A stretch of 25,754 nt of DNA. Origin: a virus (lineage: Duplodnaviria > Heunggongvirae > Uroviricota > Caudoviricetes). The stretch lies in IMG/VR virus record IMGVR_UViG_2740892213_000014. One strand, given 5' to 3'. This document shows, piece by piece, positions 1,063-24,017 of the stretch (positions are counted from its first letter, which is position 1; each line of letters opens with the position of its first letter). Made by a program: the position numbers and the translations under genes. The notes under the pieces are model-generated. The model saw only the letters and a list, made by a program, of their open reading frames with translations. It did no database searches and was not told where the DNA came from.

Positions 1063-1404
1063 TCAGCCAACATTGCGGCCTGATCGGGGTGATTTTTGGG
1101 TAATACCGATTGAAACCTGATCGCCCTCCGACTGAATAGATCCATCAAGAGAGAGAGCCGGAGCAATCTGCCCGGCGACAGGTAGCGTCTTATCTTTTAT
1201 TAGCCACAGCATGTATTTTTCAAAGCGATCGACTTGCAGAACCGCCTCAACGATTTTTGCTCTAGCGTTCTTTTGCCCCGATTCGTAATTCCTTATGGTT
1301 GCCAAAGACAACCCAGTAATATCCGCAAACTGCTTTTGTGTTAACCCTTCCGCCTTACGTATCTGACGTAACTTTTTTGCGTAGTCTATTGACAAGATAA
1401 CCAT
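1063..1404 (-). CDS. C: Immunity repressor, P2 C-like (HTH)
   Basis: Start moved to internal ATG at 1404 (MVILSIDYAKKL…). HTH segment LTQKQFADITGLSLATIRNYESGQ and C-terminal GQIAPAL motif recalled from the P2 C repressor family. Adjacent to int and divergent from the cox-position gene. Confidence 0.75.
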   Translation of the reverse strand: MVILSIDYAKKLRQIRKAEGLTQKQFADITGLSLATIRNYESGQKNARAKIVEAVLQVDRFEKYMLWLIKDKTLPVAGQIAPALSLDGSIQSEGDQVSIGITQKSPRSGRNVG

Positions 1405-1447
1405 TTGAGTATTAACCTCTCGCACAAAGATAACCTTTTGGTTATCT
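1389..1447. promoter_or_regulatory. Immunity switch region: -35-like TTGACA (1389-1394) abutting half-site AGATAACC (1395-1402); perfect 20-bp palindrome AGATAACC-TTTT-GGTTATCT (1428-1447)
   Basis: Read directly from sequence. Three copies of an 8-mer lie between divergent repressor and cox-position genes, consistent with repressor/Cox operator sites in a P2/186-type switch. Confidence 0.45.
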
Positions 1448-1508
1448 TTACAAGCCAAAACAAACCATCACAAGGCGCGACAAGCGCACCAACGCAAGAG
1501 GATAACAA

Positions 1509-2030
1509 ATGCGGGACTTCATTGCCGATAAAGAGTTATCTGACCACCAACCACTTCAGGAAAGTGACGCACTCAGCGGATCCATTGATGCCGCCAACGA
1601 CGACGAGCACGAAGAAAACAAGAAAAAGCGTTCCTACAAAAAAGGAGCGACTTTGCGGCTGGATGGTCCGATCGCCGGGCTTTGCTCTCTGGAAAAAGGC
1701 GCGGCATATATTGGGCTAACAAAATCTGCACTGCGCGTAGCCATTCATCGCGGTCAAATGCCGGGACACAAGACGCGCACAAACCCGGAAGATGAAAACT
1801 CAGACGGAGTATGGTGGTTTAACGCCAAAGAGTGGGACAAGTTGGCTGATGAGCTACCAGAGCACGAGCCCCCAGAATGGCACAACTGGAAAAGTTACTG
1901 GACGTATGACCGCCAGAAAAGGAAGTTCTCTCCAGCTAATAAAGAAGACTGCCAGACCATTAACGGTAAGCGAGTTTATACAGGCAGAAGCTCAAAACTG
2001 GACCAACTCAGAAACAACAGAGGCAACTAA
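1509..2030 (+). CDS. Cox-position protein with excisionase/AlpA-like HTH, 173 aa (unusually long)
   Basis: AGAGGA RBS before ATG 1509. Central segment AAYIGLTKSALRVAIHRGQMPGHK resembles the Xis/AlpA-type HTH. Acidic N-terminal stretch and W-rich C-terminal part have no obvious P2 Cox equivalent. Confidence 0.55.
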   Translation: MRDFIADKELSDHQPLQESDALSGSIDAANDDEHEENKKKRSYKKGATLRLDGPIAGLCSLEKGAAYIGLTKSALRVAIHRGQMPGHKTRTNPEDENSDGVWWFNAKEWDKLADELPEHEPPEWHNWKSYWTYDRQKRKFSPANKEDCQTINGKRVYTGRSSKLDQLRNNRGN

Positions 2031-2463: not shown

Positions 2464-2655
2464 TTAAAAATCAACCAGTTGTGTGACAGGTGGGTATTTA
2501 CGCTGAATTTTGTCAGTTACTAACGCCAGTAATATATGAATCTCTGCGTTTAATGCGTCTTTATCACCCGTCGTTTTTACCCTGGGAGGGTTAATGTTAT
2601 CCAGAGCAGCACTAAGTTCACTCAACAAATTAACAACTTTTTTATCTTCTGACAT
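2464..2655 (-). CDS. Hypothetical small protein, 63 aa, convergent with the 140-aa gene
   Basis: ORF track. AAGAGG Shine-Dalgarno on minus strand upstream of ATG 2655. 3' ends of the two genes are 6 nt apart. Confidence 0.45.
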   Translation of the reverse strand: MSEDKKVVNLLSELSAALDNINPPRVKTTGDKDALNAEIHILLALVTDKIQRKYPPVTQLVDF

Positions 2656-6088: not shown

Positions 6089-8911
6089 ATGACGGCAGAG
6101 TACATCAGGGACTGGCAACAACCGCGCCACGCAGTGGGACGTGAAGGAACGGGGATCCCCGTTCCTGAATCCGCGCTTTCCTCCTGGCTGGATGCCTACC
6201 GGGCAGAGAACGAGCGCCGCCAGGAAATGGCTGATGCGGCGTTCTCCGCCACGCCGCTGGGCAACCTGATTAATAAAAGCCTGGATGCACAGGAAAAACA
6301 GGACAAAACCATCACACTGGCAGGAGACGCCAGAAAACAGGTACGCGGTGCGGTGGATGAAGCCATGGCCTCGCTGCGCCTGCTGCCGTCCTATCTGCGC
6401 GATCCGCTTATTCGCCACCTCTCCTTCCTGCGCAAAAAACAGGAAGCCGATCGCCGGAAAGGCAAAAAGAGCTGGCAGGCTGAACGCTACGCGCGCGGAA
6501 CCCTGCGCAAAATATTCGAACGTCTGGACCGCACCGACCACCGCTGGCTGACACCGGGTTATCGCTCCCTTGCCGGACGCGAACGCCTGGATGATTTGCT
6601 TTACCTGCCGCAGCTCAACAAGCACCAGATACAGACGCTGGCCACCATGACGGCGGCGATGTTCAGCAGCACCTTCGAAAAACTCTGCGATGGCTTTGGC
6701 GCGACTGATGGCGAGCTGACCATGGATGTAACGCTGAAGGCGTATCAGATGCTGGCCCGCATGGCGTTACACCTGCACGCCATGCCTCCGCATTATGACG
6801 CACTGACAACAGACAAAGACCGGAGGAACGAACCGGACACGGAGCTGCTGCCGGGCGCAATCCTTCGCCTGACCTGTGCGGAATGGTGGAAACGCAAACT
6901 GTGGCTGTTACGTTGCGAGTGGCGGGAAGAACAACTCCGCGCCGCCTGTCTGGTTTCCAGAAAAACATCGCCCTATCTGAGCCAGGACGCGTTAAGCGAG
7001 TTTCGCGCACAGCGCGAGAAAACACGCGATTTCCTGAAAAGTTTCATGCTGGAAAACGAAGACGGGTTCACGATTGATCTCGAGACGGTGTATTACGCGG
7101 GAGTAAGTAACCCGGTTCACCGTAAGGCAGAAATGATGGCCACCATGAAGGGGCTGGAACTTCTGGCCGAAGCCCGTGGCGACAAAGCGGTGTTTCTGAC
7201 TGTCACCTGCCCGTCAAAATACCACGCCACAACAGAGAACGGTCATCCGAATCCCAAATGGAACGGGGCCACCATGCGCGACTCCAGCGATTACCTGGTT
7301 AACACGTTTTTTGCGGCGGTCCGCAAGAAACTGAACCGCGACGGCCTGCGCTGGTATGGCATCCGCACGGTGGAGCCTCACCATGACGGCACCGTGCACT
7401 GGCATATGATGGTCTTTGCTCATCCGGAAGAAATCGACACCATTGTGTCCCACACCCGCGATATTGCCATTCAGGAAGATCGTCACGAGCTGGGTGATGA
7501 TATTACCCCACGCTTTAAGGCGGAGTACGTCGACGGCTCAAAAGGCACACCGACCAGCTACATCGCCACCTACATCGGGAAAAACCTGGACAGCCGTGCC
7601 GTGGATGGCATCGACCCGAAAACGGGCAAGCCACGCGTTGACCACGAAACCGGAAAATCAATGGCCGAGAGCGTGGAACGCGCCATCGGCTGGGCGCGCC
7701 TTCACCGGGTCCGCCAGTTCCAGTTCTTTGGTATCCCCTCCCGTCAGGTGTGGCGTGAACTGCGCCGCCTTGCCAGCCAGATGGCTCGCAACCCGGAAGG
7801 ACCGCAACGGCTGAAGGATGACGCAATGGACGCGGTTCTTGCTGCCGCTGATGCCGGATGTTTTGCCACCTACATAGAGAAACAGGGCGGCGTACTTGTT
7901 CCACGCAAGGACTACCTGATTCGCACCGCCTACGACCTCGCCGATGAGCTGAACGATTACGGTGAACAGAGCGTACAGATTTACGGGATCTGGTCACCGC
8001 TCATCGGGGAGTCTTCCCGCGTATGCACGCATCCGGACAACTGGAAGCTGGTAAGACGCAAACCGGAAGCGGAAGACAGCGCCCGCGAAAATGGTTTTGA
8101 CCTTCAGGGCGGCCCTGCCGCACCTTGGACTCGTGGCAATAACTGTCCCCGTGTACAGGAAACGGACAACAACGGGACAGAACAGCCGGAAGAACGGCCA
8201 GCACCGTGGCCGCAGCTTCCTGACGGCGTTGACGTGAACGAATGGATGCGCTCACTGAAACGGCACGAACGCCGGGCGCTGATGCGTTCGCTGCGTGACA
8301 AACAGGCAAAAAACAGCAGTGATGAAATGCAGAGCTGGACACAGAGCCGCAAACAGCAGCGGCCTTTGCCTGATAACCACGAATTACTCGCTAAAGAATG
8401 GCGGGAATCTGCCGAATCTCTCGGCCTGCATATCGGTGAACAGCAGATGCAGCACCTGTTACGGGGCGGCAGCCTGTACGTTGACGGCAGCATCATTGCA
8501 CCGCAGGGATTTGAAATTGTACGCAAACCGGATACCCGCCCGGACAGCCGAATCACGCAGCTCTGGCAGCGCCTGAGCCGTAATCACGGCGTAAGCAGCA
8601 CGGAGATCCGCCATAACCCGGTCGCCAGCTATCTGGAACAGCTGGGGGCATCAGACCCCGAAGCCGCCGCACGTCTGGCATCCACACTTCAGCAGGACCA
8701 GAACACCATGAACCCCCCCGTTACCGTGCTTTCTGACATGCTGCGCGCCATCCGCGACGCAGAGCACGCACAGAGAATCAGTGAAACCACTGAACGTGCC
8801 CGCCGCAAAGCAGACCTGCTGCGGGGTGGCCTGACCAGTGGAAACAAAAAACAGACAGAAACGGGATTCACAAATCCCGTAAATGAGCAAAAAACGCGCC
8901 GCGATATATGA
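6089..8911 (+). CDS. A: Rolling-circle replication initiator / replication endonuclease, P2 gpA family, 940 aa
   Basis: HUH-type motif VHWHMMVF and paired catalytic tyrosines in SYIATYIGKN (Y-x3-Y) are typical of gpA/phiX174-A-type initiators. Position between early genes and portal matches P2 synteny. Protein is longer than I recall for P2 A, with a C-terminal extension. Confidence 0.88.
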   Translation: MTAEYIRDWQQPRHAVGREGTGIPVPESALSSWLDAYRAENERRQEMADAAFSATPLGNLINKSLDAQEKQDKTITLAGDARKQVRGAVDEAMASLRLLPSYLRDPLIRHLSFLRKKQEADRRKGKKSWQAERYARGTLRKIFERLDRTDHRWLTPGYRSLAGRERLDDLLYLPQLNKHQIQTLATMTAAMFSSTFEKLCDGFGATDGELTMDVTLKAYQMLARMALHLHAMPPHYDALTTDKDRRNEPDTELLPGAILRLTCAEWWKRKLWLLRCEWREEQLRAACLVSRKTSPYLSQDALSEFRAQREKTRDFLKSFMLENEDGFTIDLETVYYAGVSNPVHRKAEMMATMKGLELLAEARGDKAVFLTVTCPSKYHATTENGHPNPKWNGATMRDSSDYLVNTFFAAVRKKLNRDGLRWYGIRTVEPHHDGTVHWHMMVFAHPEEIDTIVSHTRDIAIQEDRHELGDDITPRFKAEYVDGSKGTPTSYIATYIGKNLDSRAVDGIDPKTGKPRVDHETGKSMAESVERAIGWARLHRVRQFQFFGIPSRQVWRELRRLASQMARNPEGPQRLKDDAMDAVLAAADAGCFATYIEKQGGVLVPRKDYLIRTAYDLADELNDYGEQSVQIYGIWSPLIGESSRVCTHPDNWKLVRRKPEAEDSARENGFDLQGGPAAPWTRGNNCPRVQETDNNGTEQPEERPAPWPQLPDGVDVNEWMRSLKRHERRALMRSLRDKQAKNSSDEMQSWTQSRKQQRPLPDNHELLAKEWRESAESLGLHIGEQQMQHLLRGGSLYVDGSIIAPQGFEIVRKPDTRPDSRITQLWQRLSRNHGVSSTEIRHNPVASYLEQLGASDPEAAARLASTLQQDQNTMNPPVTVLSDMLRAIRDAEHAQRISETTERARRKADLLRGGLTSGNKKQTETGFTNPVNEQKTRRDI

Positions 8912-11099: not shown

Positions 11100-11473
11100 T
11101 TTTTTTGAACGACTTTTTACCCTTCCGGCCCGCATGGCGGCTGGATCCGTCAAGGATCCGTGCGTGCACAAAAAAACGCGCTTTTTCTACGCGCAGGTGA
11201 CGGGGGAACAGCCCGCGTTTCAGGGGGTAAATAGCATTCCCTGAACGATGTCGCAGAGATACAACAGAATGGCTGTATTTCTCACGCTGAGCGTGAAAAA
11301 GACGTGAGGGCTTTTGATTTGATGGGGTGAAAGGTAAGGCCGTCAAAATCGCACTGAGACGGCGAGAACATGCAGTCAACGCGGTGGGATTGCGTAAGAG
11401 TCTGGCTGTCGATGATGGCAATAAGCAGGAAAGCGTCGTGAAATTATCTGATTGATACAGGAGCTGGAGAGTC

Positions 11474-11496
11474 GGGGCATAAATTTTTTATGCCCC
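11474..11496. other. Perfect 23-bp palindrome GGGGCATAAATTTTTTATGCCCC, downstream of portal gene
   Basis: Read directly. 10-bp stem with 3-nt loop and no flanking U-tract; possible terminator for the P-Q operon or a protein-binding site. Confidence 0.35.
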
Positions 11497-11523
11497 GGCG
11501 AAGCAGCAGACAAGCGAAGCGCG

Positions 11524-12570
11524 TCAGGATGTGGGCTGGGTGTCCAGCAGTGCATAAGGGTTAAAGCGGATCACCTCTTCGCCAAGCCAGTCATTGATGT
11601 GCTTCATGGCCTCCATGACGGGCATCAGCTCGTTAATTGCGTAAACCCGCGCGGCCTTCTCCACATCACCAAACGCACTTTTTTCGCCCGGCATCGCCCC
11701 CATCAGTTGCGGCGGAACGCGGTGCGCAGCCAGCACATCATCACGGGATGCCGCCTTAACATTCATGAACTCATCCTTTGCGGTGATCTGCTGGAACGGC
11801 AAAATTTGCACCCCCTCTTTGCCCCCGTTGGGCGCATGGATGAGCACGTTTTTAAACGCACCACCACCACGCGCACCCTGTAGCGTTTCTTTCAGGGAGT
11901 CCATGCTTTCGCGGTTTACCTGCGCTGCACCGATGTAGATGATGCACCCGGCGTGGGATCCATTGTCGTAATACAGTTTTCTGAACATGTCCGCCGAATG
12001 AGACAGGCTGGCCGAGAGTAATGCGCCAAGATATTCCGGCATGCCGTAAATTTCCTGGTTAATGTCAGGATTCATCAGGTGGCACACTTTGCCAGGGCGA
12101 AACTGAAACGCGTCCTTGCCATCCTGCACATACCACCATGATTCAAGATCGCTTCCGCGTCGCATGTATTTCGCCAGGGCGTGCCGTAATTTAAGCGGTT
12201 CGCCGAGCATATTGCTTCGAAGCTCAAGGAATGCGTTACCGAACACAAACCAGTCCAGCGCCAGCGCCGAGAAATCCTGCCGGGAAAGCAGCGGGTGCGG
12301 AATATAGCAGCCGAGCAATACATTGCGCTTAAAGTAAAGCGCAGACTGATGCCAGGACGTTTGCCGGGCAGCTCTTGCCAGACCGTACCAGTCCACCGGG
12401 GTTTCGTACCACCGCCCGTTATCAGCACAGTACATATTGTCCAGCAGGTCATGCCCGGTCAGGCGATAAGGACCATCAAATGTGAATGCACTGAGCGATG
12501 ATTCTTTCCTGAGCGCATCAGCGAGATCAATGCGTGAACTCATGCGCACTTTTTTATTTTTTCTGCTCAT
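11524..12570 (-). CDS. Q: Portal (capsid portal) protein, P2 gpQ family
   Basis: Size (348 aa) and position downstream of terminase large subunit match P2 Q. Start ATG at 12570-12568 overlaps the TGA stop of P (TGATG coupling). Confidence 0.88.
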   Translation of the reverse strand: MSRKNKKVRMSSRIDLADALRKESSLSAFTFDGPYRLTGHDLLDNMYCADNGRWYETPVDWYGLARAARQTSWHQSALYFKRNVLLGCYIPHPLLSRQDFSALALDWFVFGNAFLELRSNMLGEPLKLRHALAKYMRRGSDLESWWYVQDGKDAFQFRPGKVCHLMNPDINQEIYGMPEYLGALLSASLSHSADMFRKLYYDNGSHAGCIIYIGAAQVNRESMDSLKETLQGARGGGAFKNVLIHAPNGGKEGVQILPFQQITAKDEFMNVKAASRDDVLAAHRVPPQLMGAMPGEKSAFGDVEKAARVYAINELMPVMEAMKHINDWLGEEVIRFNPYALLDTQPTS

Positions 12571-19137: not shown

Positions 19138-19279
19138 CCCACCCACATGGGGAAACCTCGGAATATGGGGCGACCGCCTTCTGGATGCACTGGAAACCTG
19201 TAACGCGGATAAACGGGCCATTGCTGAACTGGATAAGAGAATAGCCGAACTGACACACCAGACGGGAGTAACACAATGA
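18998..19279 (+). CDS. lysC: o-spanin (Rz1 / LysC-like) lipoprotein, starts embedded in lysB in a different frame
   Basis: Start moved to ATG 18998 (MNAPTLCLTLVLLTGCAG…); lipobox LLTGC; proline-rich mature part. Confidence 0.65.
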   Translation: MNAPTLCLTLVLLTGCAGTQNAPGPAPSVRLIPQTLTMPVTPPPFPDPPTWGNLGIWGDRLLDALETCNADKRAIAELDKRIAELTHQTGVTQ

Positions 19280-21073
19280 CCAGTAAGAACTTTGCACTGA
19301 TTACAGCCATGACACAGGCTGAACTGACTCAAAAGGTGAATGAACATCTTGCGAAAGGGTGGCATCTTCAGGGGGAGACGCGGGTTGCCTACGAACCCGG
19401 CACCCCGTGGTATCTAATGCAGGCAATGGTGGCCGATGGCACTACAGACATCTCACCTGATTCCCCCCAGCACGGCAGCGTGCCGGAGTGGTATTACGTG
19501 GTGGTACTTGCTGGTCAATCCAATGCCATGTCATATGGTGAGGGAATGCCGCTGCCGGATTCTTACGATGCGCCCCACCCACGCATTAAGCAACTGGCCC
19601 GTCGCAACACAGTGACTCCCGGTGGTAAAGCATGCGCATTTAACGACATCATTCCGGCAGACCACTGCCTGCATGATGTTCAGGATATGAGCGCACTGAA
19701 TCACCCGAATGCAGACCTGAGCAAAGGGCAGTATGGCTGTGTCGGACAGGGCTTGCATATTGCCAAACGCCTGTTGCCTTACATTCCACAGAATGCCGGG
19801 ATTTTACTGGTTCCATGCTGTCGTGGTGGTTCGGCATTCACCCAGGGCGCGGAGGGGACATTCAGCGAGTCCACAGGAGCCAGTCAGGATTCGGCTCGCT
19901 GGGGTGTGGGTAAACCTTTATATCAGGACCTGATTTTGCGCACGAAGGCCGCATTGCAGAAAAACCCAAAAAACATGCTGCTGGCCGTATGCTGGATGCA
20001 GGGCGAATTTGACATGAGCGCCGCTACGTACTCACAGCAACCTCCGCTGTTTACGGCCATGCTGAAACAGTTTCGTGCGGACATTACCGAGTTTAACACG
20101 CAGTGTCATGGAGGCAGAGCGGCAAGTGTGCCATGGATTTGTGGTGACACGACGTATTACTGGAAAAACACCTACGGCACGCAGTACGACACCATTTACG
20201 GGGCGTACAAAAACAGGGAGAGCGACAACGTTTTCTTTGTGCCGTTCCTGACCGATGGTAGTGGCAACAATACCTCCACCAACGCACCAACGGAAGATCC
20301 GGATGCTGCAAGTGAGGGATATTACGGTTCGGCATCCCGAACGAACAAAAACTGGGTATCATCAAATCGCCAGACGCATTTCAGCTCATGGGCGCGTCGT
20401 GGCATTATTCCCGATCGTATGGCAACCGCTATTCTGAACGTAGCCGGTCGCACCTTAGCCTTCATCAGTGGTAAGGCACCGGAAATCAAACCCTCGCCCG
20501 GCGGCGACACGCCATCGGGGCCGTCTGAAGATGCATCCGTACGCACAATCTCCCTGTTGCCGACAGCCGGAGATGCTGCTGCGCAGGGCTGGAGCATTAA
20601 GAATGGCGGAATTCAGTTGTCAGAGGGTGTATTTAAGATCACCAAGCAGAGCAATAAAACCTGGTCCCTGACGCGCCCGGTGGATGACGCAGTCTCCCTG
20701 CTGACACGGGGTGGCAGACTGAGCTGTAAGTTTCGACTGTCAGGCGCACTGACCAACAATCAGTTCGGTCTGGGAATTTATCTGTATACCGATGTAGCGT
20801 TACCTGACGTCGTGGCGATGACCGGGACTGGTAACCCGTTCCTGATGTCGTTCTTCACCCNNNNNNNNNNNNNNNNNNNNNNNNNNNNNNNNNNNNNGCA
20901 GTGCCACGGTTACTCCGAAACTGAATGGAGTGGCTGGCCCGGCATTCCAGGTCATAAAAGACAGTCTGACACTGGGGCTGAATGCGCTGACGTTAACTGA
21001 TATCACTAAAAATGCCGCGTACGGCGTCGATATCGGCAGCCTGGTGCTGGAAATCAATAATCCCGCAGCATAA
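19276..21073 (+). CDS. NanS-p-like sialate O-acetylesterase (N-terminal DUF1737-like segment plus SASA/SGNH esterase domain); interrupted by N-gap, C-terminus re-framed
   Basis: N-terminus MTSKNFALITAMTQAELTQKVNEHLAKGWHLQGE and motif VVLAGQSNAMSYGEG (GQSN esterase block) as recalled for NanS-p of E. coli prophages. ATG 19276 overlaps lysC stop (ATGA). After the gap, frame 3 reads …SATVTPKLNGVAGPAFQVIKDSLTLGLNALTLTDITKNAAYGVDIGSLVLEINNPAA and stops at 21071-21073, just before the RBS of R. Confidence 0.65.
20861..20897. other. Run of 37 N (assembly gap or masked bases) inside the esterase gene
   Basis: Read directly; reading frame across it is undetermined. Confidence 0.99.
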
Positions 21074-23120: not shown

Positions 23121-24017
23121 ATGCCCGCCGTTGACCTTTCACAGTTACCGGACCCCGCCATCATCGCGGAGCCTGACTTTGAGGCAATTCTGGCTGACAC
23201 AAAGGCCATGATAATTGCGGCTTATCCCGCCGAACAGCGTGAAGCCGTTTCCGCCGCGCTGGAGCTGGAATCGGAACCCCTTAACGTTATCGCTCAAACC
23301 ATGTCTTTTCGTGAAATGCTGTTACGCCAGCGGGTTAACGAGGGGGCACGCGCCTGCATGTTAAGCCACAGCGCCGGGACAGACCTGGACAACCTCGCGG
23401 GCAATATGAACACAAAGCGCCTGGTTATCACTCCGGCAACGGATACCACCGACGCGGTGATGGAGAGCGACACCTCGCTGAGACTGCGGGCGCAGCGGGC
23501 GTATGACGGCCTGAGTGTTGCTGGCCCGTCAGGTGCATACGAGTATTTTGCACGCAGCGCCAACGGTCTGGTGCGTGATGCGCGGGCCATCAGCCCGTCT
23601 CCGGCCTGTGTGACGGTTTCCATTCTGTCCACTGAAGGCGACGGCACAGCAACGGAGGCGTTGCTTAATACCGTTCGCGCCGTTCTGAATGCAGAGGATA
23701 CCCGCCCGGTGGCCGACCGCCTGACGGTACAGAGCGCCAGCATCGTGACATGGCGGCTGAATGCAAAACTGTACTTTTATCCCGGCCCGGAATCCGAACC
23801 TATTCTGGCCGCGGCAGAATCGTCATTCAGGAAGTGGCTGGCTGAACAGGGGCTTATCGGTCAGGACGTGGCGTTGTCCGCCATTGCTGCCGCACTGCAT
23901 GTGCACGGTGTGCAACGCGTGGAGATAACCGAACCCACACAGAATATGGCCATCAGCGACATACAGGCGGCGCGCTGTGAGTCATTCACCATCAGCGAAG
24001 GTGGGCGCAATGAGTAA
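23121..24017 (+). CDS. J: Baseplate assembly protein, P2 gpJ family, 298 aa
   Basis: ORF track; size and synteny. Confidence 0.88.
   Translation: MPAVDLSQLPDPAIIAEPDFEAILADTKAMIIAAYPAEQREAVSAALELESEPLNVIAQTMSFREMLLRQRVNEGARACMLSHSAGTDLDNLAGNMNTKRLVITPATDTTDAVMESDTSLRLRAQRAYDGLSVAGPSGAYEYFARSANGLVRDARAISPSPACVTVSILSTEGDGTATEALLNTVRAVLNAEDTRPVADRLTVQSASIVTWRLNAKLYFYPGPESEPILAAAESSFRKWLAEQGLIGQDVALSAIAAALHVHGVQRVEITEPTQNMAISDIQAARCESFTISEGGRNE

Follow-up and report, generated by a model that had tools for sequence, protein, structure and literature searches.

A dyad-symmetric candidate operator for the C repressor at the immunity switch of a P2-like Escherichia coli prophage

Three exact copies of one 8-mer, two direct and one inverted, crowd the start of the immunity repressor gene of a P2-like prophage and the short gap that separates it from the cox gene, raising the question of which of the two proteins reads them. 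The locus belongs to a stretch of viral DNA of 25,754 nucleotides (IMG/VR record IMGVR_UViG_2740892213_000014, Caudoviricetes), the whole of which is called the window here and which is a P2-like (Peduoviridae) E. coli prophage. The original prediction had taken the mixture of direct and inverted copies to indicate separate sites for the C-like repressor and the Cox-like protein. Comparison with related prophages leads us to a different answer, to which we assign a probability of roughly three in four: the three AGATAACC motifs would constitute the operator of the prophage's own P2 C-family immunity repressor, arranged as two dimer sites around the early promoter Pe.

The half-sites and the C repressor

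The elements of the proposed operator are the following.

1063-1404, - strand: immunity repressor C of the P2 C family, 113 aa (matches in PDB, Pfam HTH_3 and PHROG 147; GpC in ON470599).
1389-1394, + strand: -35 element of Pe, TTGACA, inside C codons 4-5, with the P2/WPhi layout and family-wide conservation.
1395-1414, + strand: candidate operator O1, 20 bp, filling the Pe spacer and sharing bases with C codons 1-3 and with the initial two positions of the -10 element.
1413-1418, + strand: probable -10 element of Pe, TAACCT, with an 18-nt spacer; TAnnnT is found at equal spacing in relatives.
1426-1449, both strands: candidate operator O2, an interrupted perfect dyad AAAGATAACC-TTTT-GGTTATCTTT with core half-sites at 1428-1435 (+) and 1440-1447 (-), at about +1 to +24 of Pe.

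The three predicted half-sites are present as exact AGATAACC copies at 1395-1402 (+), 1428-1435 (+) and 1440-1447 (-). A TTGACA had been said to abut one of them at the start of the repressor gene, and it does: positions 1389-1394, within codons 1-5, are directly contiguous with the first copy. The two further half-sites placed 33 bp downstream are likewise found there, 33 bp being the start-to-start distance between the two direct copies. The supposed perfect 20-bp palindrome stands in part: it is a perfect 8-4-8 inverted repeat, AGATAACC-TTTT-GGTTATCT, but an interrupted one, with a central TTTT that is not self-complementary, so that the palindrome is not contiguous. Its arms reach 10 nt on either side (1426-1449). 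The direct repeat also extends beyond 8 bp, 1394-1412 and 1427-1445 being identical at 16/19 positions, and the upstream copy is therefore the whole 20-bp dyad in degenerate form: O1 reads AGATAACC-ATTT-GAGTATTA, with an exact left half-site and a right half that agrees with the dyad at 4/8 positions.

O1 is embedded in coding sequence. The first five codons of C, ATG GTT ATC TTG TCA, contain both the TTGACA and the first half-site; the left half of O1 encodes Met-Val-Ile, and the last two O1 bases are the TA of the -10 element. The C start codon (1404-1402, - strand) coincides with that in ON470599 and is preceded by a Shine-Dalgarno sequence, AGAGG, at 1420-1416. The protein matches the P2 C structures 2XCJ/2L49 with E = 1.1e-14 over residues 9-89, and in tblastn comparisons its identity is about 51% with WPhi C, across 77% of the query, and 35% with P2 C.

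The AGATAACC triple is the sole 8-mer cluster in the window with three copies (either strand) within 60 bp, and a cluster of this kind arose anywhere in 9/300 dinucleotide-preserving shuffles of the whole 25.7-kb window. A perfect inverted repeat with 10-nt arms, by itself not rare, appeared somewhere in 59/300 of the same shuffles. The significance thus lies in the triple cluster together with its position and its conservation, not in the dyad alone. A fourth exact copy at 23923-23930 (+), in the late region, was rejected as an operator, being at about chance level (~0.8 exact copies expected on both strands, by our own estimate).

The evidence that carries the assignment to C comes from E. 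coli and Salmonella prophages of equal layout that differ in the C recognition helix. Helix and half-sites pair as follows.

Helix LSLATIRNYESGQK (window, DG342-2, JNEC-KY172): half-sites AGATAACC.
Helix LSLSTIRNYESGQKT (Salmonella, L088): AGATAC(C/T)C, as AGATACTC in O1 and AGATACCC in O2, with a degenerate inverted half after each.
Helix VSVGTIGNYESGYK (UTI89, G6/7): TTCACC at all three positions, TTGACA-TGTTCACC and then CTTCACC-ACAT/ACAG-GGTGAAG.
Helix IPVNTQRYYETGRQ (N51): GTGTCG(A/T)A at all three positions, TTGACA-GTGTCGAA and then GTGTCGTA-AT-TTCGACAT.
Helices LSITTVKSYESSQQ and LAVSTVRSYEGVGQT (Salmonella, L089 and L090): half-sites of the GTAGTT-N4-AACTAC types.

Among members of the AGATAACC class, the two 10-nt arms do not vary, in contrast to the central 4 nt (TTTT, GTAC, TTTC) and the flanks, and in the other specificity classes both dyad arms change together. 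Invariant arms around a variable centre are the pattern that would be expected of a helix-turn-helix dimer operator with non-contacted central bases. The cox allele follows a different course. The Cox proteins of UTI89 and the window differ at 2/173 residues, yet the UTI89 half-sites are TTCACC; conversely, JNEC-KY172 and N51 encode identical Cox (WP_028985710.1) and carry AGATAACC and GTGTCGAA half-sites, respectively. Because the half-sites change with the C recognition helix and independently of the cox allele, all three very probably belong to C, not Cox. The view of the motifs as operator half-sites is thereby upheld on comparative grounds, whereas their division between C and Cox is not.

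In BLAST alignments with UTI89-type prophages, the matching segment begins at window position 1450, directly past the dyad. From such comparisons, the C N-terminal domain together with 1389-1449 appears to form one exchangeable immunity block, with the segment from 1450 rightward going with cox; the recombination boundary between the two blocks falls at about 1449/1450. The C tail (approximately residues 84-113, SLDGS...RNVG) is near-identical across specificity classes, the N-terminal domain and the operator being swapped. The O1 half-site lies in C codons 1-3, and the C N-terminus shifts along with specificity (MVIL with GATAAC, MVNM with GTTCAC, MNSTL with GTGTCGAA); the DG342-2 protein has Ser2 alongside two mismatches in O1.

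Two further motifs near the switch were rejected as operators. A near-copy in cox, AGTTATCT at 1534-1541 (-) (one mismatch, AGATAACT), considered as a distal site, is conserved whatever the C specificity, and GGATAACA in the cox Shine-Dalgarno region (1500-1507) is kept in relatives regardless of C class.

Symmetric sites extend to the wider family. Among 83 non-identical C-family switch regions (L002-L087), 24 contain an inverted repeat scoring at least 8, compared with 2% of shuffles, and several of these have a direct copy of one arm 22-33 bp towards C.

In the mechanism that we propose, two C dimers would occupy the 20-bp sites O1 and O2, whose centres lie 33 bp (about three helical turns) apart and flank the -10 element of Pe. 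In the lysogen, C on O1/O2 would exclude RNA polymerase from Pe, with O2 covering the start of the Pe transcript, and so keep cox and the early lytic genes off. The dimers probably cooperate and bend DNA, as shown for the C proteins of P2 and WPhi. High C levels should also limit C synthesis, because the leftward C transcript reads through O2 and O1; autorepression by C at high concentration has been described for P2 (PMC3448106, Figure 1 legend). The degeneracy of O1 is plausibly due to its double duty, since O1 also encodes the first codons of C and the start of the -10 element. Cox would act elsewhere, most likely at the repeats at 1450-1484. In this model we infer binding, stoichiometry, cooperativity, the transcription start and autoregulation.

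Promoters, candidate Cox boxes and neighboring genes

The TTGACA had been proposed as the -35 element of a rightward early promoter, and the family comparison agrees. TTGACn followed after 16-19 nt by TAnnnT beside the C start was found in 56 of the 83 family loci and in 8/1660 shuffles, and the arrangement matches the annotated Pe of P2. Relatives carry TAATCT, TATCCT or TAAAAT as -10 elements at the 18-nt spacing; the C-family spacer is mostly 18 nt (39 of the 56 loci) and 17 nt in 15 loci. Across the family, the Pe -10 element and the Shine-Dalgarno region of the repressor gene are reverse complements of each other. Pe is therefore probably located at 1389-1418 with transcription starting at about 1424-1426, a placement made because of the family-wide layout TTGACn-18 nt-TAnnnT, not of a consensus scan.

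The predicted face-to-face arrangement of promoters is nearly forced by the geometry, since the -35 element of Pe sits inside C and convergent promoters are then almost unavoidable, but the leftward promoter Pc was not located: a consensus scan called no promoter, and minus-strand reading yielded weak candidates only, none of which we accepted. TTGTGA (1473-1468) with TAAAGA (1450-1445) at 17 nt is weak and not conserved in the TTCACC class; TGTGAT (1472-1467) lies near the position of the P2 Pc -10 element relative to cox and lacks a properly spaced -35; and TTGTAA (1453-1448) mirrors the Pe -35 and half-site and lacks an acceptable -10.

To the right of the dyad lie the candidate Cox boxes and the early genes, and to the left of C the integrase gene.

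1450-1484, + strand: candidate Cox boxes ACAAG, ACAAA, ACAAG and ACAAG, starting at 1450, 1460, 1470 and 1480 in exact 10-bp phase.
1509-2030, + strand: Cox-family gene, 173 aa, heading the rightward early operon (Pfam Phage_Cox at residues 58-129; PHROG 23196).
1-1008, - strand: tyrosine integrase, the second gene of the leftward (lysogenic) operon (Pfam Int_N and Phage_integrase; annotated as integrase in ON470599).

The phased ACAAR run is unique in the window and was reached in 0/300 whole-window and 0/5000 local shuffles. It lies directly right of the dyad, in the segment inherited along with the cox allele. A second phased array (ATAAG, ACAGG, ACAAA, ACAAA) is found 7-40 bp past the int stop, at positions 1962-1995 of L001, the identical phage record; the two arrays share the 11-mer AAGCCAAAACA, and the int-side array is positioned where Cox binds attP according to the P2 annotation. 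The switch and the att region next to int thus each carry short boxes at intervals of one helical turn, the arrangement of Cox- and Apl-type arrays: the spacing is 10-11 bp for P2 cox-boxes (PMC3936717) and one helical turn for Apl sites (PMC7498355). The ACAAR repeats, not the AGATAACC motifs, are likely the Cox operator, to which Cox would bind.

The 104-bp gap separates leftward C and int from the rightward Cox-family gene, which is preceded by a strong Shine-Dalgarno sequence, AAGAGGA. In RefSeq, E. coli genomes list its product as a 'Cox family DNA-binding protein', and the protein had no sequence match among solved structures. Its acidic N-terminal ~55 aa vary among relatives, for example JNEC-KY172. 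The integrase open reading frame (ORF) is listed as 1-1008, with the ON470599 start corresponding to window position 993. A 140-aa ORF that follows cox (2035-2457) had no Pfam or PHROG family match; a 63-aa ORF at 2464-2655 (-), which opposes the rightward early genes, also lacks a Pfam or PHROG match and is a coding sequence in the phage record.

Between window positions 1000 and 2100, the sequence shows 100% identity with the matching region of Escherichia phage vB_EcoM-569R5, and this identity, the gene families and the match to the P2 C structures substantiate the prediction of a P2-type immunity switch. A 301-bp query covering the switch (window 1300-1600) has matches in 351/5426 complete E. 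coli genomes, with identity of >=99% in 258, including ST131 strain JJ1886.

Three observations concern the rest of the window. A run of 37 N at 20861-20897 (masked or unresolved bases) interrupts the ORF at 19276-21000. Two more perfect inverted repeats, each arm being 10 nt or longer, occur at 6145-6168 (AGGAACGGGGA...), near the start of a 940-aa ORF (6089-8911), and at 11473-11497 (CGGGGCATAAA...), just past the end of a 348-aa leftward ORF (11524-12570), where the repeat could be a terminator.

Alternative readings of the half-sites

Several points weigh against a C operator built of two dimer sites. For this phage, the assignment is drawn from comparison. The C proteins of P2, P2 Hy dis and WPhi have been described as binding non-palindromic direct repeats (PMC2995052, PMC1904268), and the use of an inverted arm is experimentally unprecedented in the P2 C family. 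The left O1 half-site has two mismatches in DG342-2 and, with a right half that matches the dyad at half its positions, the contribution of O1 may be small. The promoter around which the sites are placed is weak by consensus: a sigma-70 scan of 1000-2100 called no promoter at its threshold, and TAACCT fits the -10 consensus at 3/6 positions only and requires the 18-nt spacer. Furthermore, a transcribed palindrome is also an RNA hairpin, and part of the conservation could reflect a role in RNA.

The alternative that survives best, although we consider it unlikely, is the classical P2 model only, in which C reads the direct copies at 1395-1402 and 1428-1435 with one monomer per dimer on each, and the inverted arm at 1440-1447 is not specifically read. 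This is the published model for the three phages just named; the 33-bp spacing is near the 34 bp of WPhi, and the test applied to the 83 family regions showed no significant inverted repeat in either P2 or WPhi. However, such a model leaves no reason for the inverted arm to be perfectly conserved in the class while the 4-nt centre varies, for it to covary with the direct arms across three or more further specificity classes, or for strong dyads to be enriched at this position in the family, and the solved P2 C dimer is symmetric (PMC2995052).

Considerably less probable is a primary role of the dyad in RNA, as a hairpin, at the 5' end of the Pe transcript or in the C leader, that affects stability, translation or termination. 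The predicted hairpin is indeed stable (-12.2 kcal/mol on the + strand and -15.9 kcal/mol on the - strand, z ~ -4.9, with 0/200 shuffles as stable), and the differing palindromes of relatives would also resemble compensatory change. Nevertheless, a third copy of the arm 33 bp away by the -35 element, covarying with the dyad in each class, is unexplained by such a role, as is the link to the C recognition helix; with Pe starting at about 1424-1426, the hairpin would open at the extreme 5' end of the RNA; and an intrinsic terminator was rejected, the dyad having no U-tract and none being called there.

Slightly less probable still is that part of the set, for instance the inverted arm, is a Cox operator, with C and Cox sharing or competing for the AGATAACC motifs. 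P2 Cox binds the same intergenic region, represses Pc and reaches Pe at high concentration (PMC3936717), and the dyad adjoins the putative Cox boxes. Against sharing, natural recombinants uncouple the half-sites from the cox allele, Cox-type proteins use direct or variably oriented box arrays with 10-11 bp spacing and not 8-4-8 dyads (PMC3936717, PMC7498355), and a separate array of boxes is present at 1450-1484 and beside int. Finally, chance repeats or a functionless by-product of coding and AT-rich intergenic composition, for which the frequency of long-armed inverted repeats in shuffles and the location of the first copy within coding sequence might speak, are effectively refuted by the comparative data: the triple cluster is rare in shuffles, is placed exactly at the 104-bp switch region, and is conserved and covarying across relatives.

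If the three half-sites are a C operator with a dyad-symmetric site, this site would bring the symmetric dimer seen in the P2 C structure into accord with its DNA targets, and the combination of one perfect and one half-degenerate site would offer a clean pair for studies of binding and cooperativity. The immunity determinants of this lineage, common in E. coli, decide superinfection and induction of related phages and perhaps of P4-like satellites. The natural recombinants delimit the repressor and Cox operator modules to a few bp, which helps to annotate uncharacterized Peduoviridae switches.

Relation to known switches

Overall, the locus resembles the P2-type switch: a small C-family repressor, C and int leftward with Cox facing them ~100-115 bp away, and direct half-sites that flank the -10 element. 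In P2 and WPhi, the direct half-sites flank the -10 element as well, and in Hy dis the -35 element (PMC1904268). The P2-type feature that is missing is a non-palindromic operator, O2 being a perfect 8-4-8 (10-4-10) inverted repeat.

WPhi (P2-like immunity class III) shares a C-family repressor, a TTGACA -35 element by the C start and a Cox gene facing C. Its 10-bp half-sites, TATTGGTGAC, occur twice, with the order CAT-TTGACA first, at 34 bp centre to centre around the -10 element of Pe (PMC1904268), compared with 33 bp here, and they have no significant inverted partner, whereas O2 of the window is a perfect dyad. The -35 element of the window lies 8 bp deeper into C, and O1 therefore overlaps the first C codons. 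The WPhi cox gene is 273 nt long (~90 codons), so that the 173-aa Cox-family protein of the window is about twice the length of WPhi Cox.

P2 itself has the same gene order (int, C and cox facing C) and the same C fold family. Its annotated Pe likewise has a TTGACA -35 that overlaps the C start codon, with O1 between the -35 and -10 elements and O2 immediately past the latter, and its Cox boxes, 10-11 bp apart, are also found at Pc and beside int in attP (PMC3936717). The differences are that P2 O1 and O2, GTTTAGAT, lie 22 bp apart rather than 33 bp; that its operator is described as non-palindromic (PMC2995052) whereas O2 of the window is palindromic; that its cox-box consensus is TTAAA(G/C)NCA, compared with ACAAR here; that Pc is annotated in the P2 record while the window has no convincing Pc; and that the C-cox intergenic region measures 114 bp in P2 and 104 bp in the window.

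The closest comparison is with the UTI89 prophage PhiECO5, which shares the prophage lineage, the switch layout and the right-hand (Cox) half of the intergenic region, 103 bp long there and 104 bp here. It differs in that the C N-terminal domain has been exchanged together with the operator in a single block, with TTCACC half-sites and a C protein that is 73% identical. Immunity classes I-VII were reportedly defined by Karlsson et al. in 2006. PhiECO5 has been tentatively assigned to P2-like immunity class IX, membership in a class being taken as C proteins >=95% identical (PMC3448106). Because its C is 73% identical to that of PhiECO5, below this limit, the window apparently represents a further, unnamed P2-like immunity class; a literature search for the motif or the phage name found nothing relevant.

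Likeness to 186, which the original prediction had drawn alongside P2, is not sustained, the repressor being a 113-aa P2 C homologue and not of the 186 CI type. Switches of the 186 type have a repressor of ~190 aa with an oligomerizing C-terminal domain and a cII establishment gene after apl (PMC3448106). The C protein of the window aligns to P2 C over nearly the whole folded part, and the ORF after cox has no family match.

A different parallel is offered by repressors of the P22 c2/434 type, in which a symmetric dimer binds a dyad with the outer bases contacted and the central ~4 not (18 bp for P22R, PMC4267663). In structural superposition, P2 C matches the N-terminal domain of P22 c2, the helices being equally far apart (PMC2995052), and the 8-4-8 geometry with a variable centre at the present locus is of the same kind. 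The small C protein has a differing architecture, there is no tripartite OR/OL, and the two sites lie 33 bp apart instead of adjacent, one of the two being a good dyad.

That a symmetric dimer has to recognize two sequences that differ was noted as a puzzle in the P2 C structure paper (PMC2995052). A wider proposal, which we regard as nearly balanced while leaning slightly against it, is that members of the P2-like C family are at root symmetric-dimer binders of palindromes, the direct repeats of P2 and WPhi being eroded dimer sites, with O2 intact and O1 degraded in the window. If so, the present switch would be a tractable system for asking how a symmetric dimer reads direct repeats, and immunity specificity would be swapped in one compact unit that consists of the operator and the C N-terminal domain and ends at about 1450. 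Judged by its sequence, the locus is a switch of the P2/WPhi type whose dyad-symmetric O2 departs from the direct-repeat description of the family.

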